Positions 6,233 through 43,634 of a DNA stretch of 64,000 bases are shown here, one piece after another. The stretch lies in NCBI GenBank assembly GCA_963514005.1, contig OY740794.1, positions 13,764,001 to 13,828,000 on the forward strand. Reading direction: 5' to 3'. Position numbers and translations under genes: made by a program. The DNA is from Raja brachyura. Lineage: Eukaryota. The notes under the pieces are model-generated. The model saw only the letters and a list, made by a program, of their open reading frames with translations. It had not been told where the DNA came from and searched no databases. How positions within the stretch are numbered: the stretch's first letter is position 1; each line of letters begins with the position of its first letter.

Positions 6233-9200
6233 TAGCTGTGAATGCAACTATGAACATGGGAACTTTTTCCAAATATCAAGTAGTGGATTTGTAACAGACA
6301 ATGATGGAAATGCCCACAAGATCAAGCAACATCAGTGGAAAGGAAAATAGCTCTAGATTCAGGTCCAAGGTCCTTCGGCTGACAAAGTGTCTCGGACATG
6401 AAACATTAACTGAGCTGCTGAGTATTTCCAGCATCTTCTGTTTTACCTCGGATCTGCAGCATCTGCAGTTTTATTTTATGCTCATTGAACCCCTGGATAC
6501 CCTCCCCTGACCATACTTCAGGTCAGTTGATCAATACTCAACTTACCAAAGACAGATCCCCTTTTATGGTATCCGATATCACTCAAGCTGCATGAATTAG
6601 GAACAGTGACTATACTAAACATAAACATTTTGATTTGGAAATTAAATCCAGTTAATATAATTCTGAGATGAAAGGAATTACCATTCTAATGACATAATTA
6701 AATCAACAATTGCAAGTAAATGTTTCATTATTTTACTGTGTTACTCTCTTTTTTATATGATCTGCTCGGCCAGATGACATTTAGTGAGCATTAAGTATGC
6801 AGCAACACACCAGAGTAGTTTTTAGTGTGTGAGGAATCAAACTAGGTTTCATAATTGTGGAGATGGATTCAAGATTTCAAATATATAAAAGGCACCAATT
6901 AGATATGCATTGTTTAGAATTGTTTTGCCTCGAGTAATAAAGTAAGAAGATTTACTTTTACAAAAAGTCATTTTAAAATGCATTCAATCAAATATAAATT
7001 CTTGAGTCCTGGAGCAAAAGTTGGAAATATGGACTCTCATGACATTAACAATAATTATGATGATTAAAAAAAAGAGTTTTACAACCAGTCTAGAAGGCTG
7101 TTAGATTAGTAGAGTAAATGACATTTTGGAAAGAGGTACAAGTGGTCATCAAAAATGCTGCAGAAAAATCGCTTTCTTTATTTGTGTTTAAAGAAGAAGA
7201 GAGATTGTCAACAATTCTGCAGAAGACGAGACCTCACTAAATCACCGCGCACATCTGTCCCAATTTCACTGATGTTGCTTCAGCACCTTGTCATAGAGGC
7301 TAGTCATGTGGTTTCCACCAGCCAAGAATATTGTGTGCAAGTGTCTTGCAGTCACTGCCTGATAAAGCTCGTGATTGTCATTGACTGACGGGATTTCCAG
7401 GAAGTGCATCTAACAATAGTCATTTGCCCAATTCCTATTAGTTGATGAGAATCCGAGAGATTTGATCCTTATAGATTAGTGTTTGTATTAAATATAACTG
7501 TGCATTGGGCTAATTCTCAACAATTAGTTGCAACAATTTTAAAATGGTCCACCGAGTAAATTAAGAACAATGTATGCTGCAGAAATGACCGGCTATCTGG
7601 ACATTTAGCTAAAATGGACATTATTAGCCTTCATCAAAGAATGACATAGCATTTGTCCATTTGGTTTATGGCAGCTTAAATCCTGTATCATTATAAAAAA
7701 GTACTCCATTGCTCTTATATTCATACTGTAATTATGGTTATCAATGTGATTTATAATCATTATATCCACGTTAAATATCACAATCTTTGCCAATGGACTG
7801 TTAATCTTAAACAGTGAAACATGTTAGTAAGAAAATGAAAGAGCTGTCACACCAGATGTTTTAGGAACCTATGTAACAATATTACTTTGGATCTAAATTA
7901 TTATACATAAATCAGAAAGAATTTCAATACCCATTCTTTCAATTCACAGAACTGTCCAAAGAATTGCAAGACTGCAATCTGGTGGTTATTTTCCAATCAA
8001 TAGAATGCACCACTTCATTTATTACCACTCCATTTATATATAGCAATGAAAGGAAATTAACATGAAATTCAACCAGTTCAAAATTCCACCATAACTCTGG
8101 CATTATTTTTTTTGCCAGCTGGTGATTAATCTGTTTGGACAAAAGTGCAGTAGTAACCTCATGAATATTTCAAATACAAGGGCTACAGTAACATTAACCA
8201 TTTCTTTCTCGGGATCCTGGCTACCACTGCCCAGAATGGGTGGCAGGTCTGATGGGTAGAAAGGTGAGTGGAGGGAAGAGGTGATTGAGTGGAGAGGACC
8301 AGAATGCTGTATTACTCCTAGGGGATAGGTAAAAATGACCAAGACCACTTTGCTATAAAATTTGCCAGTTGATTGGATTTCATATTGTTAGTTGAACGTT
8401 CGATGCACATGATGAAAGAGGTGACTGGTCTTTGCACTGATCAGCTGGAATAGGGTGTTATTTTTGATCTGCCAATAAAAGGGGATGCAGTGAATATTAA
8501 AGGATTAATCTTTATTTAGAGCATACAGTTATATGCATACTCATCATGATATCAATGCCAGACAACTGGTTGGGTTTCAAATCAACAGTGCTCCATATAC
8601 CATTTTACAATACATTCTACAATGGAAACTTGTGTTTATGTCACAACTTTGGAAGGAGGATAGTTGTTGGTAACAATGTCCGCTCATTCCAACTGCAGAG
8701 AGTGAAGGGGATACAAACATCCCCATGCTTTGTTCCTAAGTTTATCTAATGTCTTTGAGGGGAGAAACTGGAATGCAGCCTTGCCGGATATAGCTTAACT
8801 TTAATACTAAATGTTCATTTAAGTCCAGATGAATTAAACCATCTGAAGGATCATAGGTGATTTCATTTTTGCAAGAAAGTGAAGTTGTACGGTGAAGAAG
8901 GCTAGCATCAGTTTAGATCATAGAAGATCCAAAGAGTACATTCTGAGTCACAGATTTGGATAATTGGACATTGTGCAGAATGCTTGAACCACTCATGTCT
9001 ATGACCAGGATTGGAAGCACTCATTAGGCATCCAGAATGTTCTAAAAAGGATGTGAACAGAAAAGGTAAATGAGGGGGGAGGGGGATCAAATGAATACTT
9101 TTGAAATTTGGGAACATATTGAGATGGATATTATAAGATTGGGTGAATCATTCAAAAAACTGGAACAAACACAGACTCAACTGGACACAAAGTGCTAAAA

Positions 9201-11302
9201 ATACCTCAGCAGGTTAGGCAGCATCTTTGGAGAACATGGATTTGTGATGTTTCGGGTTGGGACCCTCAAAAACATCACCTATCCGTGTTCTCCAGAGATG
9301 CTGCCAGTCCCGCTGAGCTTTGTTTGTGTTAACCAGCATCTGCAGCTCCTTGTTTCTACTGTCTTAACTCCCATGGTTGTGTGCTGTAATCTCCTTGATT
9401 AGAAACAAGGGCTGTGTTTCTTAATTGTCATTGTTAAGAATGGCTGATGCACTCATTCCGAACTGCAATAGGACAAAATGGTTCCCTTGATCACTGGCTT
9501 GGACTGATCTTCCACACAGGTTGAGGTACGCAGCACCATCACTTAAATAGCTGCGAACAGTGCTTTCAAAACTGGATATGCACAGGCTTGTGTATACTGA
9601 TGTCTTAAAATTGACCCAGTTGTCATGGAACTTGTCTTGGGACATGAACGCACCAAGTTCTACTGCACTAGTGCAGGAAACTGACACTGAGGCAGCATGC
9701 AGGAAGCATTTCAGCAGTATTGCAGTACAACTGCACGGCATGAAACTATACAGCTGATCGGACATTACTTGGTCAAATATTTCCAAAAAGTATGAATGCA
9801 GAAACCTTTATTTCAGATTAGATTGACCACCAAAGATATAATCCTTTCTTATTATTTGTTTCTCTCTCGATTTGGTGATTGTGAACTACTATTTCTCATC
9901 TGTTTCTTATTCCTATAGTCAGAACACTCTGTGCTCTGATGTGAATGAATGCATTTGCCATGGTATATTTTGTTTCTAGTTAAGGTCTTTGAGTAAGTGA
10001 TATCACAGCAGGCTACCCTTATGAAATGGTTCCCATGTGACAGAAAAAAATAGTATCTTTATACTGTAGTCTTATACATGAGGGAGGGGAGTCATGAATC
10101 TGCACTCTGACATTTCTAACCCGCAAAACACTTTTAAAAATAGATATTGAAACCACTAATTTTTACTGCCACCATATCTTTTCCTACTGTTGGAAGGAGA
10201 AAACATGAAAATGCCTTCCCTGATTGCCTGCAGACACTCATTATGTGGTTAACTAATAAGTGATGAAGAATTGTCCAGCTAATGTTTCACTAGCAAAATG
10301 CCACCTCTGGTGCAAACAGACCAAATTATGCCTTAAGGGAACTAGGCTTGGCCTGACACAGCTTGAGGTTGGAACATAGGCGCGTGGGACAAAAGGAGTC
10401 AATATTTGACCATTACTTTGGACATTTTCCGGATAATCGGTGTTGCGATGCAGCCATTGATGACAAGACTGGCACCCTTAGTTCTAAGTCGCCCTGGAGA
10501 CTTGGTAGTTGTGGTGTGCAATCTTTCTGATCAGCAGCAGTTTGTGGTGGTAAAGCATTTCTGCAATGCTGGAGGCAGGTAGTGCTGGGATTGTGACCCG
10601 CCACTGACGAAGAAGGGTCTCATATATATTCAGTGGCATCTACCTTCAACGTAAAAGGGCCCACAACTTCAAGTTTTCCATTTCAATTTGCCTATTCCTT
10701 TTCTCCATAGATGCTGCCTCACCCGCAAAGTTTCTCCAGCATTTTTGTCTACCCTATATATTACATTACATTCAGTTTGGAAGTGATGGCATTTTGAAAT
10801 GTCTTGGGAAGTTTTCTCAAAATGCAACATACATGTAAATTGCTCTTCTTCCTTGATAATGCAGCAAAAGGCCACTTTGTTTGCAGTTTGTATGAAAAAA
10901 ATGAAAGAAACATTCATTGGTAAAGGACAGGTTCATGTCTGTTGGACCTCGATGGAGATACCTTGCAGCATAATGTTCTAAAAGAAATGAGCTCTAACAG
11001 CACTGGAGTGAACAAGAACTGTTCAATCATGCTGTAGATGTGTTTCAAACATTATACAAACCAGTATTTTGGTGAGAGAGTTTGGGCAGTACAGGACGCA
11101 AACAGTTGTGTCGCTATCTCAGAGCTTCAGGTTTAATCCTGACCTCTGGAGTTGTTGGTGGTGGAGCCTACTTGTTTCTCCTGTGACTATGTTGGGTTTT
11201 CTACTGGATGCTCCAGCTTCCTCCCAAATACCATGCATGTGCAGATTGGGCTGTTCTCAATGTGTTGATGAGTGGTACAATCTGAGTGGACTTGAAGAAT
11301 AT

Positions 11303-11615
11303 TGAGGGTAGGGAAGATTCAAACAAGAGGGCATGACATGAGAATTAAGGGACAGAAGTTTAGGGGTAACATGAGGGGGAACTTCTTTACTCAGAGAGTG
11401 GTGGCTGTGTGGAATGATCTTCCAGCAGAAGTGGTGGAGGCAGGATCGTTTTTAACATTTAAAAGTAAAGTGGATAGGTATATGGACGAGAAGGGAATGG
11501 AGGGGTATGGTCTGAGTGCAGGTAGTTGGGACTATGGGGAAAGTAAATGGTCGGCACGGACTGGAAGGGCCAAGAGGGCCTGTTTCCATGCTGTAATTGT
11601 TATATGTTATATGTT
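11303..11615 (+). mobile_element. CR1 LINE 3' fragment (second subfamily) nested in an old V-SINE (about 11095-11710)
   Basis: TRGHDMRIKGQKFRGNMRGNFFTQRVVAVWNDLP and (GTTATAT)n tail. Confidence 0.85.
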
Positions 11616-11759
11616 AATATGTGGGGAGAATATAGTGCGATCGATGTGGGTGTGTGCTAAATATCGCTGTGGACTCCATGGGCCTGTTTCCATATCCTAT
11701 GACTATAATAAAACTGTAACTGTGTAGAACAGGGTCTTTTTTACTAAGGATAGCAGAAG

Positions 11760-11978
11760 GCAGACACAAATGCTGAGGTAACACAGCAGGACAGGATGCA
11801 TCTCTGGATAGGAGGAATAGGTGACTTTTCGGGTCGAGACCCATCCCTGAAGAAGAGTCTTGACCCTAAAACGCCACTCATTCCTTCTATCCAGAGATGC
11901 TGCCTGTCCCACTGAGTTACTCCAGCATTTTGTGTCTGTCTTCAGTGTAAACCAGCATCAGCAGTTCCTTCCTACACA
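11760..11978. mobile_element. Fold-back Penelope-terminus mini-insertion
   Basis: GACACAAATGCTG...GGTGACTTTTCGGGTCGAGACCC followed by CTGAAGAAGAGTCTTGACCCTAAAAC...CAGCATTTTGTGTC. Confidence 0.78.
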
Positions 11979-12877
11979 AAGCTAAAGACAGTCAGTTCTG
12001 TCTAATTGGCAATAAAAAGCATGGTTGTCAGGTCACGAAGACCCAAGATTTGGAGCCCATTATGAAAAACTACGGGAAGAAGATGTACCCCAGGATGAGA
12101 CGAGGACGAGTTGTAAATTACACAACAGAAATGGAAAACTTGAAGTTGTTGGGCCCTTTTACGTTGAAGGAAGATGCCACTGAATATATATGATTTTGGA
12201 AGATCATCCTATTTTGCAGGACACCTATTCCCTGATCTTGAGGAAATAGATACCTAAATGAAATATAAAATCAGTTGAAACAATGGGTTGTATTCATTGT
12301 CAAGGCATCTTGATAACCATTCCAATGACACATTGTACAGCTCCGAGATATCTATATCCGGGCTAGTTTTATTCAGTTGACATTACAGCTGTGTGAATTC
12401 AAATTTTCCTCAGAGGAAAATGTTTTTTTTTACAATTCTATCAAAAGGGTATGGGTGCATAATGGACATGTCACTGGCTATGTAATATGAACCTACCAAA
12501 TTATCATGAAAATCAACATGGATTACTAATGTCCTTCAGGAAGAAAATCTGCTGTCCTTACATGGTCTGCCCTACATATAACTCCAGATTGAGACTCAAA
12601 TAAATGTCATTTGAAATGACCCATCAAATTGTTTCACTACATGGACAACAACTTTGTGATGGAAATTCAGGAAATCAATTCTGGCCTTTCCAGGTACACT
12701 CTCATCTACGCATGAATTTTAAAAATACTGTCTGGTGGTTTCTCGAACTGATCAAGAACATTGCTTTTACTCTGGGATGGCAAGGTGAAGTATATTCAAC
12801 ATCACTCCACTAACTTTAAAAATACTGTGGAACATCATGAACTAGCATCTCCTTCCTCCCCAACCCAATACCATCTA

Positions 12878-13507
12878 ACTTTCATAGCAAAAGGATTTGA
12901 GTATAGGAGCAGGGAGGTTCTACTTCAGTTGTATAGGATCTTGGTGAGACCACACCTGGAGTATTGCGTACAGTTCTGGTCTCCAAATCTGAGGAAGGAC
13001 ATTATTGCCATAGAGGGAGTGCAGAGAAGGTTCACCAGACTGATTCCTGGGATGTCAGGACTGTCTTATGAAGAAAGACTGGATAGACTCGGTTTATACT
13101 CTCCAGAATTTAGGAGATTCAGAGGGAATCTTATAGAAACGTACAAAATTCTTAAGGGGTTGGACAGGCTAGATGCAGGAAGATTGTTCCCGATGTTGGG
13201 GAGGTCCAGGACAAGGGGTCACAGCTTAAGGATAAGAGGGAAATCCTTTAGGACCGAGATGAGGACTTTTTTCACACAGAGTGGTGGGTCTCTGGAACTC
13301 TCTGCCACAGAGGGAAGTTGAGGCCAGTTCATTGGCTATATTTAAGAGGGAGTTCGATGTGGCCCTCGTGGCTAAGGGGATCAGAGGGTATGGAGAGAAG
13401 GCAGGTGTGGGATACTGAGTTGGATGATCAGCCATGATCATATTGAATGGTGGTGCAGGCTCGAAGGGCCGAATGGCCTACTCCTGCATCTAATTTCTAT
13501 GTTTCTA
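12878..13507 (+). mobile_element. CR1 LINE 3' fragment
   Basis: LYRILVRPHLEYCVQFWSP...IEGVQRRFTRLIPG...YEERL, CR1 ORF2 C-terminus plus 3' UTR. Confidence 0.93.
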
Positions 13508-13734
13508 AAGGTGCTCTAAAGTCTCAGGTGGATTAAATTGAGAGTCATGCTTGAATGTCTAGTGGATGATTTGCAAACAAACTCTAGCATCAAGGTGGGA
13601 GAAGGATGTCAAACTACATAATTTGTTTAATATGCAGAGTATCAGGTTCTTGACTGTTATTTGCTTCAAATAAAACAAAGGGAATGGACATAAACACAAA
13701 GTGCTGGAGGAACTCCAGGTTAACACAGGTTAAT

Positions 13735-13985
13735 AGGAATCTGAGAGGTAACCTTTCTCACACAAAGGGTGGTGAGTATATGGAACAAGCTGCCAGAGGA
13801 GGTAGTTGAGGCAGGAAGTATCTCAACCTTTAAGAAATAGTTAGACAGGTACATGGGTAGGACAGGTTTGGAGGGATATGGACCGAATGCTGGCAGGTGG
13901 GACTAGAGTAGCTGGGACATGTTGGCCTGTGTGGGCAAGTTGGGCCAAAGGGCCTGTTTCCGCACTGTATCACTCTATGACTATA
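13735..13985 (+). mobile_element. CR1 LINE 3' fragment (third subfamily)
   Basis: CACACAAAGGGTGGTG...TGGAACAAGCTGCCAGAGGAGGTAG, similar to 35375-35597. Inserted in a Penelope-terminus remnant. Confidence 0.8.
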
Positions 13986-14747
13986 ACTCAATGAGTCAGG
14001 CAGCATCTGCTGAAGGAATAGACAGGCGACTTGTTGGGCTGGGATTGATTGTAAGGTTAACCTGCTTTGTATTGTAAACTGCCATTGTCAATGGTGCAAT
14101 GTATTATACCTACATGTATGTATAATAACAGACTGTGCCATTGTATACAATACTTAAGTATGATAAATAATGGAGAACCACACTAATTAAAATAACATGC
14201 TGCTGGAAATATTATGCCTGCATTTAATAGACAAGGTGCTGTTCTGATGGTTTTAATAAAAACACAGTGGGCTAATGGGTATGAAACTCTTACATGAAAT
14301 AAACAGTAAAATGAGGTGTGGCTTGTTATAAACCATCTGTATATTATTAGTAGTACAATCATTCCAGGTTTCATATTTCTACAATTAAAATAAATTAATG
14401 TATGGAGTTTAAAATGTATATATAAAACACAATTATCCATTGACCTACCTGGATTTGTATCCCTACGTAATTGTACAAAAATACACTGTGTAACTGGACC
14501 ACAATAATTCTAGCACACAATAAATAATGACTTGGTTTACTAGCCCTACATATAACAAACATATTGTGCTGCTGAGGATTCAGCACTGTAACATGAATTA
14601 ATGACAAACTGTTCCTTGACGTTCTTATATGCTACAAACAAAAACACACTATGCAATTTGGGTACAATAATCCAACAGGTCAAATCTGATATAACACTGT
14701 ATTAACATTTCTCAAAATGGGGCCAATGAACAGGGAAATCCATTTAC

Positions 14748-15435: not shown

Positions 15436-16003
15436 ACATTAAAGGTCCTTTTGGTTTAAACATGCCTGCACCATCAGAAGCAGAGAATAGTTTGATTTGT
15501 TGCTTGCTGCTATAGTATATAAGCAATATATAAAAATATAAATGTGGGAACAACCTATGTTTTAAAATGAGAAATTAAAAAATGTTTACAGCCACTCAAT
15601 CATAAACCAGTAAATCCTTAGGTATGCATCTCTTAAAATGAAAGCAAGATTGCAGGATGGCTTAACACGTATCAGTTTATGGGTAACTGAAGATGTGCAA
15701 TTTCATTAAATGATGGTAATAATATAATTTATCAAGTGTGGCTAGCTCCTATTACAGTTTACAGCATTTATTGTGTAAACCAGACAAAGCATAACATTAG
15801 GCAAAGCAGAGAACAGTTTCACTATGATATTCTTGTCAATAAGTTACAAGATGCGAATGCTGACAATTAAGATGGTGCATAGTTTTGAAGGACATAGTCG
15901 CCTTATATTACTTTGAGGTATATCACAACAATCCTCAATAGTTTTGTGCGTGTGCTTTTAATTCTAGATAAAATGCCACAGCAAAAGCAACATATTGTCT
16001 TAC

Positions 16004-17351
16004 CTGTATATAGGATCCATGAAGAAAGGGGTTGGTTTGGCATGTTGCAGTGAATGGTCAGAGCTCTTGGCTTGCTCGATACTGGAGCCCCTCCTCTCCC
16101 CAAACACATGGTTCTTTCGGGGCGCCACCAGAGTGCTTGCATTGGCCCGGCTTCTGCTGCTCATACTCAGGTCCAGTGGCTGCTCTTCACTTGCATGGTG
16201 AGGAGTCAGTGGCTTTAAGGACACGGGTGGCACTGGCTTCTCCTCCTTGCGTTTGGTTGTGAGGTCAAATGGTGACTCGGAATTTGCCCCCCTCAGCTTC
16301 TTCAGCTCACTGGGTGACTGGGGCTCTATTTTTAAGGGTACAGCGCTTAAGTCTCTATCGGGGAATGGATACATTGGTTGAGAGAATGCGGGGAAAAATT
16401 GAAAAGGGAACATGGATGGGTATGGCAAAGGCCCTACTTTTTTGTCTTGTATGCCGACAAGTCCAGTAGAACCAAAGTACTTCTCAGCAATGGAAGCAAT
16501 AGCCTTGATGGAGTCATTAACAGCTCCTGTCACCGCAATCTGTTCATCCAGTGGTGGGGAAAAATGCGAGTGGCTGGAAAATTCTCTCTTGTTGTTGTTG
16601 TTCGGAGGGACTACTTTCTGGGGGCTATTTGCTTTCTCCTCCGCAGCTTTGCCATTTTCTTTATTCTTCTCCTTGTCACTTTCAACGTCGCTCTCCAGGT
16701 CGGATCCGGAGGTTGTCTCCAAGTCGCTGCCGCTGGGGGTACTGACGTCATCCAGGTCACTGCTTTCTGACTGGTCACTGGTTTTACTCCGGGGCTTCTC
16801 TCCAGAAGTGGCAACCTCCAGTGGTCGATCCCCGTCCGAAGACGACTGCCGGTTGGCGGCCTTCAATGCGTCTGGTGTGCACGGCAGTGCCTGGGATGAT
16901 GACAGCATCTGGCTTTGGTGTTTGGTGCTCTGTTCTGATAAACCTTTCAACGGCGAGCTAGCAGGTATCAACTGAGGCCTGTGGTAAAGGCCTGAGGGAA
17001 ACAGGCCTGGGAAACTAAACGGAAAGCCCGGGGCTGCCGGGAAGGTTAGTCCAGCCCCGTGCCTGTTGGCACCAAAATAGTCAGCAAGGCCAGGGTTGCT
17101 GTGATTTAAGTTAACCAGACTGGACTTCTCCAGAGTGGGAGCATTCGTTAGGGCAATGCCTTGGCCAAATAAACCTCCCGTGGTGAAATGGTTCTTCCCC
17201 TCACAGAATCGTCTGTGCTTGTTCAACGACGAGGTTGTGCTGAACATCTGACCGCAGTCCTTGCATTTGATTTGCGTTCGGCAGTCCGCATGCATCCTTT
17301 TATGGCGGCACAGGTTTGAAAACTGCGTGTATGATTTGTGACAAACTTCAC
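16004..17351 (-). CDS. MECOM: MECOM large central exon (zinc fingers 6-7, acidic/Ser-rich region, CtBP-binding PFDLT and PLDLS)
   Basis: ccgcag|GT GAA GTT TGT CAC ... ATA TAC AG|gtaaga. The 462-aa ORF 16000..17388 contains [80 protein letters not shown] and PFFMDPIY. These fit MECOM better than PRDM16. 1348 nt, phase 1 to 2. Confidence 0.97.
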
Positions 17352-19985
17352 CTGCGGTTCGAGAAAACGGAAACATGTCAACCACCACGTACCTCTATGC
17401 CTGGAGCAGTGATCTAGCTCGGGCGACCCCTACACAAAGACTACCTGCAGGAGGTACGAGCAATTCAATGAAACATGTGTCAAAGGCCCCTCATCACCAT
17501 GACAGATCCGCCAAAATCTACACAAAGCAAAGTTCATCCCAAAAAGCAACATCGGGCACATAATTGAAACACATTGTTTTACTGAAGGCCATTACTGTAA
17601 CATGGATTTGCTCCTTTTATCTGCAGTGTTGGCCTCTAGTAATATTGCTGCACGATTAAAATGTTGGATGTGGGGCTCATGTAGGTGGAATAACTAGGAT
17701 TTGGGGCAAAAATATTGATTGTAATGGGTGTTATTTATGTGGGTTATACGTGAAGTTGTAAATGGAGAATGAAGCGTTTTTACTTCAAATATGTTGTGTC
17801 CGTATCAAGTCTATGAATGTCAGGTGCTGAAGAGGCAGATGAAGGGTAATCTGCATTAGCAATATGTAAGAAGGAACTACAGATGCTGGTTTACACAAAG
17901 TGCTGCAGTAACAGGCAGCGTCTCCGGAAAGAGGGAATGGGTGACGTTTCACGCTGAGGCATCTCGACCCGAAACATCACCCATTCCTTGTCTCCAGAGA
18001 TGCTGCCTGTCCCGCTGAGTTTCTCCAGCGTTAGCGATCTGTTTGATGGATTTTGCAGTCTTCAAGACAGATAAGTAGTTTACTTTAAAGGAATTCAAAT
18101 TAAAGCCAGTTTTATCCTCTAAATCTATACCCACTGGGAGCTGAACCAAAATAACAAATTTATTTCTGATAGACCTAAGAGCAAGCAAAAGATGACCAGG
18201 GTAATTGGGTTTAAAAAAAAAGACACATGCATTTACACAGCCTTAGGTCAACACAAAATGTAATGTAGAAATATGGCAACTATTTAGCACCAAGCATGCT
18301 CCCATAAACATCCATGTGATATTGTGCTGGTAATGTACATTAGCAATAAAGAATGAGATGTATAACTAAGTCAAGAAACTAGAGACACACCCTCTTCCCT
18401 ACAACACTGCAGTACTTTTCATATCCATCTAAGATGACAGTCAGAAAATCTGTTCAATGCCTCACTTAAAAGGTAGTGAAAATGCTGCCATGTACCATCG
18501 GGCTTTTGGAACCCTGTCCTTAAGTAGCAAGATCGCATCCACTGCACCACCTTAATTCCCCGCACCCCTAACCGCCGGACTTTAACCCGTTTCCAGTGTG
18601 TATCTTCAAAGATCAAGTTTTCTGTTAGGAATTGACTAGGAACTCCCTTTTCACTCAGTATAAGCCGTATTCATATGCATCAGCAGTGACATAGCTGTAT
18701 CATTGCAGTAGCGAACTATATGCAGTCTGGTCTGTTGGAGTCACTTATTGGTATTCTTGTGCCGATCCCGTTTGGGTTGAATACATCAGCATGGAGGTTA
18801 TTAAATCTAACAGTACGATTGAGATTTCAATTAATGGTTAAGAGGGATATGGACCTAACCTGGGCAAATGAGACTAGCTTATGGCACCTTGGTCAGCATG
18901 GATGAGTTGGTCCGAAGGGCCTCTTTCCATGCTGTATGGCTCTATTGCTGAACCTAGGGATTGCAGATGCTGGAATATGGATCTAAAAACAAACTGCTGG
19001 AGGAACTCAGCAGGTCAGGTAGCATCTGTGGAGGGAATGTAGTCTTGAAGAAGAGTCCTGTCCCGAAGCTTAGTCTGTCCTTTCCCTTCACTGATGCTGT
19101 TTGACCCGCTGTGTTTCTCCAGCAGTTTGTTTTCACCTAATGCCGTTGCCCAAGAAAAGTTATATATAAGGCGATGACTGTGAATGCATGTGAAACTGAC
19201 AAATTGGAACAGTTACAGCAGAACTTTGCTCTGAATTCCCATTATGCAGCAAAGCACAGTTTTTGAATGGAACCAGATGTTATTCTTCTCAGAATCCTGG
19301 AGCCTGCGATGGTATCTGGGATCTGCACTTGTTAATAATGAATTGTTGCTGTAGTCATACTCATCCTTTGCACATCAAAGAAGGAAAACAATGGGCATTG
19401 AGTGCTCTGAATCATTTGTCAACAACTTTTTTTTAACATTTGTAAAAGACTGACAAATTATCACAATACAATGATCCAGTTGCTATTTTAAGCAGAAAAG
19501 AAGGAAGCTGAATTGAATGTATCCCATCCTGCACTCTTAGTTCCCATGGTCCTACAATCACGTCCTTGATTTCCCCTCGTACTGTTCCTGAGGGTAACCT
19601 TCCTGCATGTGAATGTTTCTCTAACCTCAGCCATTCACATTAAGCACCGAACGATAAATAGAAAACACTGAAGTGCTTTAATGATGCCAATGCTACACCA
19701 AAATATGTTGCAACATGTTATGTACCTTCAATTAAAGCTTTACTTCCTATCTGCTGATAGCTATTGCAGGGAAATCTATTAATAAACAATTCCGTTATGT
19801 AACCTTAATTTCCCTTTGGCTTGCTGTTTATTCAAGCTAAATACCCACACGATTTGCAAAGTTCATCAACAGGGAAAAGCTGATTTCAGCAAAGGTAAGC
19901 TGATAATTTAAAAGATTATACATAGCTTATAATGTGAGAAACCACACCATTAGGTGCGACTGAAACCAGGGTTGTCATAACTTGA

Positions 19986-20085
19986 AGAAGTCTGAAGAAG
20001 GGTCTCGACCCGAAACGTCACCTATCTCCTTTGCTCCTTAGATGCTGCTGCACCCGCTGAGTTTCTCCAGCTTTTTGTGTAACCC
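19986..20085 (+). mobile_element. 100-bp Penelope-terminus mini-insertion with hammerhead motif
   Basis: 14-bp TSD TTGTCATAACTTGA (19972-19985, 20086-20099). The body matches the 3' terminus of the Penelope-like element. Confidence 0.85.
19988..20023 (+). ncRNA. Putative minimal type I hammerhead ribozyme motif
   Basis: CTGAAGA-A-GGGT(CTCG)ACCC-GAAAC-GTC. It has the CUGANGA and GAAA boxes, stem II, a palindromic ACGT in place of stem III and a GUC site. Stem I is weak. Confidence 0.65.
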
Positions 20086-21954
20086 TTGTCATAACTTGAG
20101 TTTTTTTTAATGCACGCTTGATGCTTTAAATTCAAAATAAATCGTATGCATCCAGCACTAATATTTTCTTTTAGAAATTATTTTAAATAGAATATTAATG
20201 CTACTTGCATACAATATAATACTGCCTGCCCCACTGAGTTACTCCAGCATTTCGTGCCTTTCTTTGGTGTAAACCAGCATCTGCAGTTCCTTCCTACACA
20301 ATATATTGATTTGCTGTGAATGGGGAACATTCTGCCCCTTCCTCTCGTCCAACTTTCTCTCCCCCGACAGCAAACAGTCCGAAGAAGGATACTGACCCAA
20401 AACGTCACATATCAATGCTCTCCAGGAGATGCTGCCGGACCTGTTGAGTTACTCCAGCACTTTCTGACCTATTTGGGGAAAGCTCCCACCTTTGATGGAA
20501 AGTTAGATGTCTATTTTGTGCATTTATCTAGCATTTAAAGTGCAGCTGCAACTTTCAGTTCAAAATAATTTTATCTCACAGGTTTATTGTAAACATGAAG
20601 AGATTATACAAACTTTAATGTAACTTTGCAGGTTCCAATAGATATAATATTCTATTTTATGAGGTGCAACATTTTGATCCACAGATCAGCTGTGATGCTG
20701 TTGAAAGGCTGATCTAAGGATGTGTGTGTTGTGGCTCCAGGTACTGGATAGCCCCTGCCTGTTCCTAATACCCTTGTTTCTTCTACAGTCTTGACTAGCA
20801 ATGTATTTAACATCAAAAGACGGACACAGATCAATTGTTTAATACACTTTCATGGGTGATGCTTGTTTTTGGTCTGCCCATGAGACTTAATTACATCATA
20901 TAGCCATACAGCACAGAACAGGCCCTTCGGCCCAAATCGTCCATGCCGACCAAGATGCCCCATCTAAACAACTCCAATTTGCCCACTTTTGGTCCATATC
21001 CTTCAAGGTCGTGCAGTAGTTCAGCTATACCATCTGCCCTGATGTGGATACATCAATGCCAATCAGCAGAGTACAGAGGGCAGGTGTTGCCAGCAATGTT
21101 CAGGACAATCAATTGAGCTTCACCAGGCATAAGAATTAGATGATACAATCCATTTACAGTGAAGGTTCATGCTACATTGACCTAATACTTTTCACTCCAT
21201 CTTATGGTGGTTTGCTGAGCACACCCCACCATTTCTTCAAGGCTTCTGCACTCCGATGTATTTCTAACCATGATATGCTTGCATAGGTCAAGTTTTGATC
21301 TTGTTGACATCAATGGACTTAGAAGAGGTAATAATTTCCACTTTCAAAATACATCAAGACAGATCTCTGGCTAGGAAGGGTTTAGAGGGCTATGAATCAA
21401 AGGCAGGCAAATGGGACTCGTCCAGAATGCCGACTTGGTCAGCCTGGTCAATATGAGCTAAAGGGCTCTTTTGAAAAATTAAGTTAATTAACAATTAAAA
21501 GAAAGTTTGGCCAGAGGGCTTGTTTATTTCAAACTTGCTTACTTTCTCAGAGTATATAGTATAACAGAGGCAGGGATAAAGATGACCAAACTAATTATCT
21601 AACCTCCAACCACATTTGCTTAATGTCACTCACAGATATTTAGAAAAATAATTGTTCTAAATAAAAATACGTATATTAGTGTTAACGTGGTTTTAGCTCT
21701 TTAGAAAAAAAGGCCATTGACTATAAGCAATTGAAGAAGTTTGTTCCGGTCCTTATCCATATCTGGCATTAATTATGATTTTTACCTCAGCATTTTTCAC
21801 CTGACCCCATATTAATTGATATTCTAAAGTTTACAGATTGCAGCCTTGAATAAAATCTGCACTGAGCCTGCTAACGCCTCTTTGCTTACAATGGCTCTCT
21901 ACTCTCTGGGCAAAGAAATGTATTCTCATCTCAGTCACAGTATGTATAACTGAG

Positions 21955-22250: not shown

Positions 22251-23354
22251 AGGACTGAACCCTAATTCTAGATGCCTACCAGGGGAATCATCGCCCCGAT
22301 ATTTATCCCGTCAAAACCCTATTTGGGAATACATTTTTAAAACATTGACTGGGGATGAAACTGGGCTTCATTCACCCGCTATAGAAACCTTGCCGATCTA
22401 ACTTCTGTCAAATTATTAAGGGAAATAATGATTACTCATCTTCCCCAGTTTGCAAATGCCATCTTGTCTTCGATTTTACACACAAAAGGGAATCAACACA
22501 CTGTGATGGCACTAATTCTTGTTGATGCCCTGTGCTGGCTCACACATGCAACGTTGGAATAAATGGAGACAACCATTTAACAGGTTTGTTGTGAGCAGTC
22601 AATGATAAATTACATTTAATACCGGTTTCCTCAGACTTCAGACTTCAGAGTAAAGTCTGGAATCTGAAGAAGTGTCCTGACGTGAAATGTCATCTGTCCA
22701 TTTCCCTCCACAGACGCTGCCTGCCACACTGAGTTTCTTATTTCCTAGAGGAAGCAGTTAGCTGACTGCTCTGATCTCCTTGTGTTTTGGAGGGAACATT
22801 AACCACTGAGCCTGCTCGAGATATCTCCATGAACTTCTGCGTCCGATGATTCTGTCAGTCTGTGGAGGATGGTTGGACTCATATACAGTCCAGATTGGGA
22901 GTGGGGGGTGGGGAGCGTGGGTGGGGAGTAGTTGATGAACCAGTTGTGATATCGCGAGTTTGCACTAACAGCCAATAACTAAGCATATCTATCGGATGCA
23001 GTTCCCCCACTTGTCGCCTCTCTATATTGTCAGCCCAGCATTACAGTAGACTTTATTTCACTAGTTTATCTTGGAATAAAGTGATAACTCTTCTGGTTGA
23101 ATGTTCAATAATATCTTCTCTTTGCACTGACTACCTTGCTTTTTGGATCAATAATGCCATGCTTTTGTAAAATGTAAGTGGGATATAGTAAAACGTGCCA
23201 AGGTGCCTGAATGCTGAAGGATTCAGAGGATGTGGTGAACAGACAGCATAGTGGACTGAGTACAGGGTCACCAGGATGCTACTGAATGATAGAGCAGAGG
23301 CAAATGTCATATGATCTGCTCCTACATTAACTTCTTGTGTTCATTTGCCCCTTC

Positions 23355-24365: not shown

Positions 24366-24995
24366 TGGCACAGTGGTGCAGCTGATAAAGTTGCTGCCTC
24401 ACAGTGCCAAAGACCTGGGTTCAATCCTGACCTAGGGTGGTGTTTGTGTGAATTTTGCACATGTTCTCCTTGTAACTGTATGGGATTTGTCCAGGTGCTC
24501 CAGTTTCCTCCCATATTCCAAAGACTTGCAGGTTTGTAAACATAGAAAATAGGTGCAAGAGTAGGCCATTCAGCCCTTCAAGCCAGCACTGCCTTTCAAT
24601 ATGATCATGGCTGAGCATTCAAAATTAGTACCCCGTTCCTGCTTTCTCTCCATATCCCTTGATTCTGTTAGCCCCAAGAATTATATCTAACTCGCTCTTG
24701 AAAACATCCAGTGAATTGGCCTTAACTCACATCTGTGGCAGAGAATTCCACAGATTCACAACTCTCTGGGTGAAAAGGTTTTTCCTCTACTCTCTGGGTG
24801 AAAACGTTTTTGCTCAACTCTCTGGGTGAAAACATTTTTGTTCAGTTAGGTGGTAGGTTAATTGGCCTCTGTAAAATTGCCCCTAGTGAGTAGGGAATTG
24901 ATGCGAAAGTGGGAAAACATAGAACTAGTGAGAATGGCTGATCGATAGTCAGAGTGGACTGCTGGGGCCGAAGGGCCTGTTTCTATGCTGTCTCA
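24366..24995 (+). mobile_element. V-SINE interrupted by an antisense CR1 3' fragment (about 24538-24850)
   Basis: The SINE breaks at GCAGGTTTGT and resumes at TAGGTTAATTGGCC. The insert is the reverse complement of the CR1 3' end. Confidence 0.8.
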
Positions 24996-25167
24996 TTCAC
25001 TCATTCCCTACTCACTAGGGGCAATTTTACAGAGGCCAATTAACCTACCACCTAACTGAACAAAAACGTTTCCACCCAGAGAGTTGAGCAAAAACGTTTT
25101 CACCCAGAGAGTAGAGGAAAAACCTTTTCACCCAGAGAGTTGTGAAACTGTGGAATTCTCTGCCACA
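24734..25167. repeat. 165-bp inverted duplication (24734-24898 / 25003-25167)
   Basis: The arms are reverse complements with about 3 mismatches and a 104-nt spacer. Confidence 0.92.
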
Positions 25168-26049: not shown

Positions 26050-26320
26050 ATAAGTCATAGGAGCAGACTCCTGACATATTCAGGAAAAGTCCCATTGGCC
26101 CATTGAGTCTATTCCGCGATTCAATCATGGCTGATCGATCTTTCTCTCTCAACTCCACTCTCCTGCCTTCTCCCCATTAACCTTGACACCCTGACTAATC
26201 AAGAATCTGTCAATTTCCGACTTAAAAACACCTAATGACTTGGCCTCCGCAGCAGTCTGTGGCAATGAATTCAACAGATTCACCACCCTCTGACTGAAGA
26301 AATTCCTCCTCATCTTTCTA
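26050..26320 (-). mobile_element. CR1 LINE 3' fragment
   Basis: RKMRRNFFSQRVVNLLNSLPQ on the minus strand plus 3' UTR. Confidence 0.85.
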
Positions 26321-29116
26321 AGGTGCGACCACTGTAAACCACCCCCTGGTTGTGTAGATATGTGGTAGAACCTGGCAGAGTGAGGGGAGGGTGGAAATAC
26401 GGGGAGAATGGGAATTGGACGACTGATACTGGGATTGCAAGCATCCACTTGCTTTAATCCATGGGGATGCTTTATGGCCTGCACAGACTTGGTGGTCTGG
26501 GGCTAGTTTCCATGCTTTATCTCTCCATTGTGGACCCAATAGTGGATTAATTGACACCAGGCAATCCCAATATCAGCCGTTCCATTCCTCACATTACGAG
26601 AGGGTCAACTGGTAAATGCCAACACATTGAAAAGACAGCTTCACTTTTATGATCAGGAAAGGTTAAGTTAATGAGGTCCCATTCATTATTGGAAGCTGAA
26701 TCGTAAACATTAAAAATAATCAGGAATTCAAAGCAATTCTAAAAATAATTTCCCTTTGCACTGCTGTGCATTTCGGCAACTCAGACATCTCAGTGTCTAT
26801 CAAACTCCCTAGAGTGCAGGCAATGCGTGGTTTGCCAGAGCCACATGTGGGGATAATATAGGAAAGCTAGCAAGCACTCAGCTCCGTGCAGTCTTTCAGT
26901 TTCACACTTCATTGTTTCAGCCCAGCTTCTCCCCTTTTACCTCCCTTCTCTAATTTCTAAATGTTCCAGGCATTACCACCTGACAAGCTTTTCATCACTT
27001 CAAATGCTGTGAGCACACCACAAACCACAAACCACTTTGTAGTATCAGGTCCATCTGATGCCAGCGTGCTTTGTGAAGTAATTTTCGGAGAACACAGTAA
27101 TTAGGCAGTACTCAGGGGCTGCATATTTGTTGCTTATTAAAACAAATTAAGTTCTATTTTGAATTTGTTTGGCCCATACATCCATGTGGTTTCTATTCAG
27201 TGGCTTCACCTTTTTTTTCAACAAGCTAATAATTACTTTTTTTTGTTTTATTATACTTAAGGATTTTTTTTCTCTTTAGCTAAGGCAGGATGCAGTAATA
27301 AGAGACAGTTGCTGAGAACAGGCCCAGCAGAGGGATATACTGAGTGTGCGTGTGTGGCCCTTTTAAATAAATGACTATGGATGAAGTTGAAGAGAGCAGG
27401 TAATACAACACAACTCTTGAACAATATAACTCCACTCTGTACAGCTGGATTGACAGACAATTTGTAAGATCATTACTTGCCAGTGAACAAATAAAAATCA
27501 ATTGAGATATCATTGGATAGCTTTACAGTGCAAACAAAAATGTGATTAACTCGGGTTTAATCTCTTGAAGGTGCAAAAACGGGATCAAATGTTCCAAAAG
27601 GTGCAATCATTTGTTGCCAGCATTCCTACTAAACTCAGAACCAAATAATTAATGGGCAATAAGATCTGAGAGTGAATGTTGCCCGAGCTGGTTTAATGCC
27701 CATTTCTTAGGCCTTAACCAGCACAGTGGATGGATGGATCACCCACGTTTTACTGCAGGGGCCACACTCATCGCAAACGACCTTGATTTCAATTCTGGTT
27801 TCTGTCAGGTTAGCTGATCTTAAGCGGGTAATAACAGGACCATTACATCTGGTTTCACTACTCCTTTGAAATTAAGGAAAGAAGAAAAGAAAATTCCTGA
27901 CTTGTATTGGGAGGCAGACGTGTGAATATCAGGTGAAGGTAGGATCGGATTATATTATTCTGGGCAATCAAAAAATTCGCAACAGATGCCCTTAAGTCTG
28001 AGTAGTTACTTAAATGGAAGTGGTACAGAATTGTACTGAAGTATGTGCCCATGGTTTTAGAGGATAAATGATGTGTATTGGGAAGTAAATTAATTTCCGA
28101 ATGGCAAACTGTTCAGTAAATGAAACTTGTGCGAGTTAAACAAAATTATACAATCCGACAAGCTGAACGATTGAAGACAAACTATTACATGACTGATATG
28201 GTTTACGAGCTGCCGGGCTGGTTTGTCCTGATCTCCATGTTGGGCCTTGATGTGACTCCACTAATCAGATTACAATTGGCTTCAAGCTATTATCCAAGTT
28301 CACACAGTCCTCTCAGCTAGTCAGAGCAGAACATAGCCAGAAATAGATGTGAAAAGGCTCCTTTTACCTCATGGGATGCTGTGCAGGGTCTGAGCATTCC
28401 AGTGTGCACACCAAGTGCAACAGGCAACCAACCATAATTCTGACTCATGTGGTTCTTGCAGTAACATGATCACAGAGCCTGTGCCCAGTAGGCAGTCAGT
28501 TAAGCTAATTATATTGCTGTAATAGCAAGAGATGGACAGATAAGAGAAGTGTAAGTTTGCACAGGTGCAATGACAATTCATAACTCACACTGAGGGGACA
28601 TATGACTGTTTGTTTTGCATAATCTCTTCGACAATGGCAGTACCAGGCACTGCTGGTGTGTTCCTCCAGTGCAAGAAAAACATCCTACACCTTTCGCAAG
28701 ACATATGGGAAAAAAATTGAGCTGAGGATGGAGATTAGAGGTGGGTGGGGGGAGAATGCTTGGTTATAGAGGGTACCTTTGATAAGAACATAAAGGAGAC
28801 AGATGGAAAACCAAATGGTTTGGAGAACTTCCAATGTAGGAACTCATAGACAGGGACAGGGCACCAGCAGTGAAAAGGATTGGGGGAGGGAGGAGATTTG
28901 TACAGGTGTCTGGGGGTTAATGGGGAGAAAGCAGGAGAATGGGGTTGAGAGGGAAAGATAGATCAGCCACAATTGAAGGGCAGAGTAGACTTTGTGGGTC
29001 AAATGGCCTAATTCCGCTCCAATAACTTAAGAACTTATGAGATGGGGTGCAAACACACATTTCTAGAGCCAGAGGAACAGTCAGAATTTGGAAGAAAGGT
29101 TCAATTGGATTGGGAA

Positions 29117-30959
29117 GACAAAAAAACTGGAGAAACTGGTAAGACAGCATCTATGGAGCGAAGGAATAGGCGACGTTTCGGGTCGAGACCCTTCTTTAAA
29201 CTGATGTTGGGGGGGGGGGGGGGGGATGAAAGAAAGGAAGAGGCGGAGACAGTGGGCTGTGGGAGAGCAGGGAAGAGGAAGGAGGGAGAAAGCAAGGACT
29301 ACCTGAAATTGGAGAAGTCAATGTTCATACCGCTGGGGTGTAAACTACCCAAGCAAAATATGAGGTGCGGTTGCTCCAATTTGCGGTGGGACTCACTCTG
29401 GGCATGGAGGAGGCCCAGGACAGAATGGTCGAATTTGGAATGGGAGGGGGAGTTGAAGTGTTGAGCCACCGGGAGATCAGGTTGGTTATTGCGAACTGAG
29501 CGGAGGTGTTGGGCGAAGGGATCGCCAAGCCTGCGCTTGGTCTCACCGATGTAGAGCAGTTGACACCTGGAACAGCGGATGCAATAGATGAGGTCGGAGG
29601 AGGTGCAGGTGAACCTCTGCCTCACCTGAAAAGACTGCTTGTGTCCTTGGATGGAGTCGAGGGGGGAGGTAAAGCGACAAGTGTAGCATTTTCTGCATTT
29701 GCAAGGGAAAGTACCAGAGGAGGGGGTGGTTTGGGTGGGAAGGGACGAATTGACCAGGGAGTTACGGAGGGAGGGATCTCTGCGGAAAGCAGAAAGGGGA
29801 GGAGATGGGAAGATGTGGCCAATGGTGGGATCCCGTTGGCAAAAATGTCGGAGGATTATATGTTGTATGCGATGGCTGGTAGGATGGAAGGTGAGGACAA
29901 GGGGGACTCTGTCCTTGTTACAAGTGAGGGGATGGGGAGTGAGACCGGTGCAGCAGGATATAGAGGAGACCCTGATGAGAGCCTCATCGATAGTAGAAGA
30001 GGGGAACCCCCGTTCCCCAATGAATGAAGACATCTCCGACGCATTGGTTTGGAACACCTCATCCTGGGTGCAGGTGCGGCGTAGACGGAGGAATTGGGAG
30101 TAGGGAATGGACTCCTTACAGGAAGCAGAGTAGGAAGAAGTGTAGTCCAGATAGCCATGGGAGTCAGTGGGTTTATAGTAGATGTCGGTCAGTAGTCTGT
30201 CACCTGCGATGGAGATGATGAGGTCTGGAAATGGTGTGGAGATGTCGGAAATGGTCCAGGTGAATTTGAGTGCCGGATGGAAGTTAGTGGTAAAATGGAT
30301 GAAGTCAGTGAGTTCTGCATGGGTGCAGGAGGTAGCACCAATGCAATCGTCAATGTAGTGGAGGTAGAGTTCGGGGATAGGGCCACGGTATGCCTCGAAC
30401 AAGGATTGTTCAATGTACCCTACAAAGAGGCAGGCATAGTTGGGGCCCATGCACGTGCCCATAGCTACGCCTTGGATTTGGAGGAAATTGGAGGAGTCAA
30501 AGGAAAAGTTGTAGAGGATAAGGACCAGCTCCGCTAGGCGGAGGAGAGTATTAGTAAATGGGGATTGGTTGGTTCTGCGGTCGAGGAAGAAGCGGAGGGC
30601 TTTAAGACCCTCCTGGTGGGGGATGAAGGTGTAGAGTGACTGGACATCCATAGCGAAGATGAGGGAGTGGGGGCCTGGAAAACGGAAGTCATGAAGGAGA
30701 CGAAGAGGGTGTGAGGTATCTTGGACATAGGTAGGGAGGGATTTGACCAGGGGGGATATGATGGACTCGAGGTATGTGGAAATAAGTTTGATGGGACAAG
30801 AGCAAGCAGAAACAATGGGTCTGCCAGGCCAGTCAGGTTTGTGGATTTTAGGGAGAAGATAAAATCAGGCCATGTGAGGCTGGGGGAGGATGAGGTTGGA
30901 AGCTTGGGAGGGCAGGGAGCCGGAAGCGATGAAGCCAGTGATGGTGCTTCATCGCTTCC
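29117..30959 (-). mobile_element. Penelope-like retroelement (probably Neptune clade), 5'-truncated
   Basis: Frame open 30864 to 29299 with RT motifs (LPKIHK, RPIVS, MDVQSLYT, GVAMG, YIDD), a Cys-rich linker (CKCRKCYTC) and a GIY-YIG endonuclease (IYCIRCSRCQLLYIGETKR). 3' terminus has a degenerate hammerhead motif near 29170-29203. TSD GGATTGGGAA at 29107-29116 and 30960-30969. Confidence 0.9.
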
Positions 30960-32670: not shown

Positions 32671-32824
32671 AGATGAATGGCTTGACGCTGCTGTGGATGT
32701 GCTTGTGCTGCTTGAGACCCGAGGAAGTGGCAAATGTCTTTCCACATTCCGGGCAGGCGTGGGCCCGAGCACCGACATGCTGTGAGCGAATGTGTCTCTG
32801 CAGATTGCTGGGGTCTGTAAAAAC
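32671..32824 (-). CDS. MECOM: MECOM coding exon (zinc fingers 4-5)
   Basis: ttcccagcag|GTT TTT ACA GAC ... TTC ATC T|gtgagt. [51 protein letters not shown]. 154 nt, phase 0 to 1. Confidence 0.97.
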
Positions 32825-33774
32825 CTGCTGGGAAATAGTAAAGAAATCTGATGCAGGGAGATGAAATATGGATATCAAGGTACAATCTTTCAACCAAATG
32901 CATAGGCCAGTTTCTATAAAGAGTACTTTATGCTACCTTTAACTTGACTTAAGCTTCAACCTGTATCTAGTTTTCCTGTCTATTGTTTGACATCTACGAT
33001 GGCTCCAAGAATGTTTTTCGCTGAAGCGCATATCATCTAATCTCAGGTTTTATCTAAGTAATCAATAAAGGAATCCAACTCCCTTCAATGCTCTCCAACC
33101 ATACATTTTCAGGTAAATCTATCACATAAGGCTAACTTTGAAAATACCTCGATTTTATACACTGTAATTCCCAGTCCATCTTTGCCAGTACCACACTTAA
33201 GGACGTTAAGCTACAAGCTATGTGTCTGTGATTTTGTCCCGTTGGTCACTGTCTCTTTCTGGGAGAACATAATGTTTAATCTTACAATGTCTTCTTTGAT
33301 CCAAAGCCCCCTGCAACTAATGAAGTTGGCAGGGTCCGGGAATCTCATACTTTGAGTCCCAATTTGCCCATGTTCAGTCCCTCCTCCTCAACAGCAGAAG
33401 TGTAAGGACCAAGTGGCCCAAACAGTGTCTAGCTCAGCTCATGGAAAAAAAATCCTGGTATTTAAAAGAAATAGTGTGTATTTCAAAAGAAAACCAACCA
33501 ATATAGGTAGCTGCATTATACACACTTGGACTGTCATTGTGGAATTGGTGATGGTTTAGTATAGTTTATTGTCGCGTGTACTAAGGTACAATGAAAAACT
33601 TTTGTTGCGTGCTAACCAGTCAAAGGAAAGACAATACATGATTACTGTTGAGTCATCCACAGTGTACAGATACATGATAAAGGGAATAATGTTTAGTGCA
33701 AGGTAAAGTCCGATTAAAGATCGTCTAAGGATCTCCAATGTGGTAGATGATAGTTCATGACTGCTCTTTAAAGT

Positions 33775-43543: not shown

Positions 43544-43634
43544 ACCTCAGAAGGTTCAGCTTATTCTGCGGATGCGTCAAAAGTCATTGTCTGTACAATT
43601 TTCCAAGCTTTCCAATAATATATTTTAAATGGAC

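Follow-up and report, generated by a model that had tools for sequence, protein, structure and literature searches.

Short insertions that carry a hammerhead ribozyme motif raise the question of which machinery places them in a genome and of what part the ribozyme plays in their mobility. This question is posed by the insertion at 19972-20099 of a stretch of 64,000 nt from the skate Raja brachyura (assembly GCA_963514005.1, contig OY740794.1, positions 13,764,001 to 13,828,000; hereafter the window). A first-pass annotation ascribed it to a dispersed, non-autonomous family derived from the terminus of a Penelope-like element (PLE). In the reading that we favor, and that we hold to be probable, such insertions are the terminal pseudo-long terminal repeat (pLTR, about 130 nt) of Neptune-like PLEs, inserted alone by the autonomous protein in several waves, as short run-off or truncated cDNAs with a passenger ribozyme. 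This is mostly ordinary PLE biology, the unusual features being the density of the copies and a fixed 5' stop. The analysis covers a single 64-kb window, in which the boundaries of the pLTR copies (arms) were curated by hand, very short arms escape detection, and copies are not independent of one another. Positions within the repeat are numbered from C3 of the hammerhead (+1), the predicted cut lying after +28.

Abundance of the Repeat

The minimal-hammerhead pattern has three matches in the window vs. 0.01 expected, and none of 100 shuffles reached three. The two copies first annotated as intact, at 19992-20019 and 55320-55347, are confirmed. From copies in the window two profiles were made, each of which gave 38 hits, with 0, 0, 2, 0, and 0 hits in five control runs of the first profile and none in all 10 control runs of the second. 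In the hand merge, the copy at 6293 was added from the first profile, that at 43972 was kept from the second, and the split copy at 59354/59556 was joined. Curation leaves 38 arms at 28 loci, made up of 10 head-to-head pairs and 18 single arms, with four weak arms (6293, 6412, 13717, and 59707). The repeat covers 3268 bp, that is 5.1% of the window, with one pLTR locus per 2.3 kb. The high abundance announced by the first-pass annotation is confirmed, and its figure of at least 15 insertions was too low. With 19 plus and 19 minus arms there is no strand bias, and host selection against sense-strand copies was rejected.

The duplications that bound the insertions measure 9-21 bp. The five named at first are all present; those of 14, 21, 10, and 12 bp are exact and the 16-bp one at 46977/47181 has one mismatch. 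A duplication score of at least 9 was obtained at 7 of the 20 loci tested vs. 1 of 200 random sites, and none of the remaining 13 loci rises above background. Eight duplications have an AT content of 72% vs. 57% for the window. Since the last 7 nt of the 21-bp duplication are also the 5' head of the ribozyme, part of the “intact” 55320 motif is indistinguishable from target DNA.

Relationship with Penelope-Like Elements

The repeat is the 3' pLTR of two longer elements, at 29117-30959 and 43641-44878, which bears out the proposed origin from a PLE terminus. The first of them is real, and its own 10-bp duplication at 29107/30960 gives exactly the bounds first assigned to it. At its truncated 5' end stands a perfect 16-bp inverted repeat (30920-30961), the inversion habit of PLEs in miniature. 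Alignment of its protein with homologues reveals a reverse transcriptase (RT) plus, at the C terminus, a GIY-YIG endonuclease (EN) with CCHH. A protein search with the open reading frame (ORF) gave 994 hits, some carrying PF01541; Pfam RVT_1 matches it only below cut-off. The segment linking RT to EN reads CX4CXXC, and a CxxC lies between the GIY-YIG motifs. The Neptune clade is described as having a CX2-5CxxC linker between RT and EN (PMC8557442), so that the linker points to Neptune. Because Nematis also has a zinc-finger motif in the linker, the element is designated here as Neptune-like, a putative assignment based on the linker motif. Domain order, linker, pLTR, inverted 5' copy, tail, and variable duplications are all shared with endonuclease-containing (EN+) PLEs of the Neptune clade.

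Among the 120 matches listed for the protein of the minus-strand ORF (29299-30864), a gene model of Amblyraja radiata ranks first by identity (82%, across 54% of the query), and named shark and ray gene models are 58-66% identical. Three gene models from rays and skates, although named after host genes, consist for the most part of PLE ORF, being either annotation artefacts or exonised PLE pieces. In a gene model of the zebra shark, the reading frame crosses a low-complexity region and enters a peptide which, by eye, matches the translated motif at 7 of 10 residues; hence the same terminus is probably present in sharks too.

The first-pass annotation had also placed parent and progeny in one gene. 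This is not supported. Homology of the 29117-30959 ORF starts at about residue 255 of an 803-residue relative, an in-frame stop lies near 30865, and an Arg and a Glu that are conserved in the aligned endonuclease domains are replaced. The motif described at its terminus is present, but its core is mutated (C3U, G5A). Identity between its pLTR and the young subfamily B is 85-88%, and among the members of that subfamily it is 89-100%. For all these reasons the element was rejected as the parent of the short copies; it is their dead, 5'-truncated sibling. The arm at 31446-31575 was likewise rejected as its 5' pLTR, because it lies beyond the duplication, and ORF homology ends at 30945; it is thus an independent insertion. 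Both ORF-bearing copies are 5'-truncated and have no 5' pLTR. In a tree, they fall with short copies of two age classes (support 92 and 95). Subfamily B comprises six arms with 97% identity to its consensus and has no ORF-bearing member in the window. A pLTR-encoded start of the ORF was considered and rejected, the best blastx match against 120 homologues having an E-value of 0.099; a translated pLTR search gave one hit, left unused.

The Hammerhead Motif

The motif at 19992-20019 is made up of CUGANGA, an extra A, a 4-bp helix II with a tetraloop, GAAA, a CG palindrome, and UC. This minimal type I layout, with an ACGT palindrome replacing helix III, had been recognized at first and agrees with PMC4209133 (Cervera & De la Pena 2014), where conservation is described for the G10.1-C11.1 pair, for a palindrome at 15.2/16.2, and for a nucleotide placed between 9 and 10.1. 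The skate motif shares with the PLE minimal hammerhead the CUGANGA box, the unpaired nucleotide, G10.1-C11.1, GAAA, the palindromic 15.2/16.2, and UH, and its 4-bp/tetraloop/CGUC layout is also that of the Acropora Neptune row in Fig S3 of that paper. Hence, the extra A, initially entered as a caveat, corresponds to a conserved feature of these ribozymes. Within the window, the unpaired position +8 is an A in 20/21 arms and +9 is a G in 20/22; the 4 bp of helix II fall in the published range of 3-7 bp. ACGT is found in every subfamily B copy covering the site and in the A and B consensuses, and the site is palindromic in 9 of the 15 spanning arms. Five of these 15 arms have CUGANGA and GAAANNUH boxes without any core change.

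Helix I, as already remarked in the first annotation, has only 2 bp, in contrast to the published descriptor of at least 3 bp; no hit passes that descriptor and three appear when it is relaxed to 2 bp. Descriptor-based ribozyme surveys would therefore miss the family entirely. Variants with a 2-bp helix I were accepted by hand in PMC4209133, with rows for Drosophila virilis and Culex. The skate motif thus counts as a variant of the PLE minimal hammerhead, one that falls outside the descriptor. Neither the table nor the alignment of PMC4209133 includes a cartilaginous fish. An Rfam search at E<=10 returned no hammerhead match, its 10 matches all being to other families and below the gathering score. 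The exact motif had no hits in bacterial and archaeal genome contigs, and ARAGORN found no gene indicative of a tRNA-derived head.

Folding does not single out the hammerhead. As single strands, the sequences fold no more stably than their shuffled versions (z between -1.05 and +0.79), RNAalifold on 14 arms gave four pairs without covariation, and the predicted folds disfavor the hammerhead shape, with pair probabilities of 0.12-0.15 for helix II and about 0.005 for helix I. A dimer-compatible fold has -12.7 kcal/mol vs. -21.5 kcal/mol for the optimum.

The consensuses of subfamilies A and B differ at none of the 28 ribozyme positions vs. 20 of 96 elsewhere (p=0.007). This identity over +1 to +28 suggests that the hammerhead is under selection in the master elements. 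The dispersed copies decay neutrally and their ribozyme is a passenger. Indeed, the excess conservation of the core that was to be looked for among copies is absent within subfamilies (0/38 vs. 15/525 and 6/90 vs. 76/815); among the 65 mismatches at CpG, 57 are transitions. Pooling of the 15 spanning arms, which are not independent, does give an excess for the core (140/150 vs. 825/972).

Ends, Tails, and Head-to-Head Pairs

The 3' ends of the arms are bimodal. Eighteen of the 38 lie at +88 to +99 and 15 at +119 to +130, with five elsewhere, so that the two groups stand about 35 nt apart. A CCAGC box occurs at +74 to +79 and again at +104 to +109, each time about 17-22 nt upstream of a 3'-end cluster, and may position RT initiation. 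In nine of the 10 head-to-head pairs, the tail is on one arm only. A one-sided tail of 30-40 bp together with an inverted 5'-truncated copy is known for PLEs (PMC8557442, PMC3846280, PMC8969392), and both are present here. In six of the nine one-tailed pairs, the tail-less arm extends further 5' than the tailed one and each arm holds sequence that the other lacks; neither arm can thus have been copied from the other by plain fold-back. In PMC3846280, such pairs are ascribed to self-priming on an antisense template, which may apply here as well, and two separate primings would be the simpler reading of those described here. Within the pair at 43381-43553, the two arms are identical over their 36 shared nt. 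At the 46993-47182 junction, the complement of the sequence just past the cut site sits directly upstream of the minus-strand ribozyme. The inversion thereby gives rise to a helix I that is long and perfect but shifted by one base, in a copy in which G10.1 is mutated.

The cut site is crossed by 30 of the 38 arms, which implies that the templates were mostly uncut; only two arms (10690 and 47084) start at the first base after the cut. According to the first-pass annotation, lengths forming a continuum of 5' truncations would have spoken against a family of its own. The 5' ends are indeed spread, but with a sharp pile-up at the 5' edge of the ribozyme: among the 20 arms that reach +3, 15 stop within 7 nt, at -4 to +3, and five continue into a pyrimidine-rich untranslated region (UTR). 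For ends at this edge we found no description in print. The edge region is locally palindromic, which would help in the joining of two cDNA ends; four or five single arms also stop there, which favors run-off at an RNA 5' boundary or a fixed RT stop. In the UTR-bearing copies, the sequence just upstream is a pyrimidine tract followed by CAG, usually TCAGT, which we take to resemble an initiator as well as a 3' splice site. Upstream of six single arms, a search for a spliced junction with the end of the ORF found none.

A Model for the Short Insertions

Ends, tails, and pairs are as in PLEs and support the mobilization by PLE machinery put forward at the outset. The sequence of events could be as follows. 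(i) The GIY-YIG domain would nick AT-rich DNA on both strands, as in published work. (ii) RT starts inside the pLTR, at about +95 or +130, the gap between the two sites being the known “tail”; this and the next step are shown by the end statistics. (iii) RT copies mostly hammerhead-uncut RNA and very often stops at the ribozyme 5' edge (-4 to +3). (iv) This edge may be the 5' boundary of the RNA, set by transcription initiation or by splicing within the 5' pLTR, or RT may come to a hard stop ahead of the C-rich UTR; most products would then be “run-off” cDNAs of 60-135 nt. (v) Where both nicks prime, one per start site, microhomology would link the 5' ends of the two cDNAs, and the resulting head-to-head pair would have a one-sided tail. 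In the masters, the hammerhead would be maintained by selection, probably as a dimer- and protein-dependent ribozyme; in dispersed copies it would be a decaying passenger. A more precise version, which we advance only tentatively and think rather doubtful, is that transcription of the skate PLE begins, or its RNA is spliced, some 3 nt upstream of the ribozyme, and that RT priming at the two start sites of the 5' pLTR gives “strong-stop”-like run-off cDNAs, which integrate directly, either singly or as twin-primed head-to-head pairs.

Several points weigh against this model. The 5' pile-up fits short non-autonomous masters equally well. It also exceeds what truncation would give, since a constant truncation rate predicts 0.75 stops vs. 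the 15 of 20 seen; 5' ends that are hard-bounded by a duplication or an inverted junction give 9 of 14 (P about 1e-9, or 5e-4 at a five-fold rate). The window holds no full-length element with a 5' pLTR, and the initiator and splice-acceptor reading is based on resemblance to consensus motifs. The spliced exon, as said above, was missing upstream of all six single arms tested against the ORF end. As for selection on the hammerhead, the remaining four comparisons between subfamilies show no core excess (p 0.08-1.0), and conservation in three pLTR blocks further downstream is about that of the core (0.922 in the core vs. 0.945 and 0.962 in other blocks). Finally, the hand-curated bounds and the dependence between copies bear on all of these counts.

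The main competitor, less likely though a serious one, is a true non-autonomous family, in which short pLTR-only masters with an internal promoter, or transcribed by read-through, are copied in trans by PLE protein, like short interspersed nuclear elements or monomeric retrozymes. The sharp 5' boundary, the 26 short vs. 2 ORF-bearing loci, and the lack of an ORF-bearing member of young subfamily B in the window speak for it. Moreover, pLTRs are reported to suffice for integration in trans in a rotifer (PMC3846280), and non-autonomous PLE derivatives have been described (PMC8557442; bioRxiv 10.64898/2026.07.22.740005). However, no internal sequence is unique to the short copies, whose two ends vary in the manner of PLEs, one PLE tested in vitro is described as needing template RNA beyond the RT start sites, which is absent here (PMC11167929), and one window cannot show that B lacks an autonomous member. 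The separate family claimed at first stays a candidate reading; five arms run on into PLE-type UTR, two of them as far as ORF remnants.

Recombination between the direct pLTRs of full-length insertions, leaving solo pLTRs, is improbable. It predicts duplication-flanked solos and, through an inverted 5' copy, one-tailed pairs within a duplication, and rotifer solo pLTRs have been attributed to recombination or deletion (PMC3846280). It would nevertheless require two-pLTR precursors to outnumber truncated copies, whereas both ORF-bearing copies lack a 5' pLTR and PLEs are described as heavily 5'-truncated (PMC8557442, PMC8969392); besides, the available repeats are just 60-130 bp long. Least probable of all is mobility driven by the ribozyme, in which self-cleavage, perhaps with circularisation, defines the mobile RNA as in retrozymes: the two arms beginning exactly one base past the cut site and the core invariant between the A and B masters would fit, but most arms cross that site, none of the 28 loci is a head-to-tail array, a 2-bp helix I fails the published descriptor in every motif, the predicted fold disfavors the hammerhead, ribozyme mutants are reported to be without effect on insertion in vitro (PMC11167929), and 8 of 9 predicted Xenopus dimers are reported not to cleave (bioRxiv 10.64898/2026.07.22.740005).

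Comparison with Known Systems

The closest functional parallel to the model with PLE-inserted pLTRs is Poseidon PAc of Anolis, the tail of which was traced to two RT start sites, with extension of both target strands (PMC11167929). Two internal RT starts bounding the tail, both-strand priming, AT-rich targets, and uncut template RNA are common to both systems. In contrast, Poseidon PAc belongs to another clade and its ORF starts inside the ribozyme, a start that the blastx comparison with 120 homologues did not find here. For the 5' boundary, comparable descriptions are an intron ending at helix I in Drosophila virilis (PMC4209133), a start site 46 bp before a 75-bp intron in the same species (PMC2377424), and an Inr-like (initiator-like) motif in the rotifer pLTR (PMC3846280).

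Non-LTR retrozymes have in common with the skate copies a type I hammerhead, kinship with PLE pLTRs, and dispersed monomers (PMC7229834; bioRxiv 10.64898/2026.07.22.740005). The preprint ties retrozymes to PLE pLTRs and reports them in its one chondrichthyan genome. Animal retrozymes are described as head-to-tail tandem arrays with units of about 300 bp on average (PMC7229834). They differ by these tandem units, by canonical ribozymes, and by circular RNA in the tested cases, whereas the window has head-to-head pairs and PLE-type ends, with head-to-tail tandem units at 0/28 loci. Dimeric hammerhead cleavage is summarized in a review (PMC6765202).

Dispersed single motifs, head-to-head pairs, and the one-sided tail are all already described for PLEs. 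According to PMC4209133, the motifs are for the most part single, being “probably related to truncated PLEs,” some form opposite-strand pairs, about 4,000 motifs occur in coelacanth and about 9,000 in Xenopus, and in vitro activity is low even as dimers. As the element type, the ribozyme, and the inverted and tailed architecture are published, no new system is revealed. We found no literature account of this pLTR family in sharks or skates, although Repbase/Dfam, Lunse et al. (RNA Biol), or preprint supplements may cover it, and the repeat is very likely to be in repeat libraries already. The word Penelope is absent from the main text of the little-skate genome paper, and the whale-shark genome paper mentions it once.

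The value of the locus is therefore quantitative. The density, which in this window is far higher than in the published surveys if the window is typical, the bimodal 3' ends, the one-sided tails, and the fixed 5' stop would make PLE questions testable by genome counting. If the 28 loci and the 3 motifs with an intact core found in 64 kb are scaled up to a 2.2-Gb skate assembly, this extrapolation would give about 1 million loci and about 100,000 motifs. If this is true and the window typical, the family would be among the largest ribozyme-motif families in a vertebrate, and its fossil record would be dense enough to read out PLE integration steps. How PLEs make their second strand, how head-to-head pLTRs arise, and what the hammerhead does are presented as open questions in PMC11167929 and PMC3846280.

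Features of the Window

Table 1. Coordinates of pLTR insertions and PLE remnants in the window.
Feature	Coordinates	Strand	Evidence or remark
Left target-site duplication, 14 bp	19972-19985	+	exact repeat of 20086-20099
Single-arm pLTR insertion, young subfamily B, about -6 to +94, no tail	19986-20085	+	96-97% identical to 55318 and 43453 copies
Putative minimal hammerhead of type I, with 2-bp helix I; cut predicted after 20019	19992-20019	+	pattern and architecture of PMC4209133 Fig S3
Right target-site duplication, 14 bp	20086-20099	+	repeat of 19972-19985
Single arm with tail (55318-55447), motif 55320-55347; 21-bp duplication overlapping motif head by 7 nt	55304-55468	+
Subfamily B head-to-head pair with 10-bp duplication; tailed minus arm from +66 to +130 and plus arm from +8 to +97	43381-43553	.
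Subfamily B head-to-head pair with 16-bp duplication (1 mismatch); minus arm from +1 to +95 and tailed plus arm from exactly +29	46977-47196	.
Head-to-head pair joined at palindromic 5' edge (-4/-3); plus arm tailed; 12-bp duplication	63437-63631	.
Head-to-head pair, minus arm tailed; 9-bp duplication	46046-46283	.
Head-to-head pair, both arms tailed; no duplication found	62671-62899	.
Head-to-head pair, plus arm tailed	11757-11977	.	profile searches
Head-to-head pair, minus arm tailed	17865-18032	.	profile search
Older head-to-head pair	18956-19139	.	profile searches
Older head-to-head pair	9180-9354	.	profile searches
Very decayed head-to-head pair, weak scores	6293-6476	.	profile searches
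Short arm +50 to +130, without ribozyme; 8-bp duplication (borderline)	20211-20305	+
Arm running into pyrimidine-rich UTR-like sequence; 5' limit approximate	20330-20476	+
Older single arm; core boxes intact, palindrome decayed	22661-22738	+
Single arm starting exactly at +29	10690-10755	+
Single arm with UTR-like upstream; independent insertion	31446-31575	-
Single arm, 5' end about -2	45243-45338	-
Decayed arm with UTR-like upstream; 5' limit approximate	47644-47800	-
Single arm, 5' end about -3	55700-55798	-
Older single arm	58895-58976	+	profile searches
Single arm split by unrelated 151-nt insert	59354-59613	+
Two small decayed fragments (13685-13719, 13984-14042)	13685-14042	-
Weak fragment, E 0.007-0.03	59707-59737	+	profile searches
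5'-truncated inactive Neptune-like PLE: RT-EN ORF remnant (open 30864-29299), pyrimidine-rich UTR, tail-less pLTR 29117-29203	29117-30959	-
Older PLE remnant: ORF pieces 44209-44878, longer different UTR with tail-only fragment 43972-44007, pLTR 43641-43763	43641-44878	-

Two of the short copies have particular surroundings. At 10609-10762, an 8-bp AT-rich direct repeat encloses 59 nt of unrelated DNA and a pLTR piece from exactly +29, with a piece of ribozyme head just outside the repeat; this may be captured sequence or a rearranged copy. The insert at 59405-59555 that splits a pLTR copy has a 5-bp duplication of its own.

The host context is provided by minus-strand exons encoding C2H2 zinc fingers, at 16000-17394, 32555-32932, about 34600, and about 36800. 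We take them to resemble MECOM/EVI1, the analyses themselves having given C2H2 fingers only; a PDB search with one of the exons returned generic zinc fingers only. A long low-complexity purine/pyrimidine tract at 54280-54933 gives rise to spurious ORFs. At 50588-52790 lies a broken, GC-rich retroelement of the Gypsy type, with RVT_1 and RNase H matches in separate frames. An inverted duplication of 165 nt (24734-25167; 98% identity), with internal subrepeats of about 28 nt, is presumably a piece of a CR1-type long interspersed nuclear element (LINE). Similar “FFTQRVV” stretches recur in ORF pieces at 927-1277, 11296-11727, 12752-13321, and 26149-26502, which we assume to be 3' ends of CR1-type LINEs.

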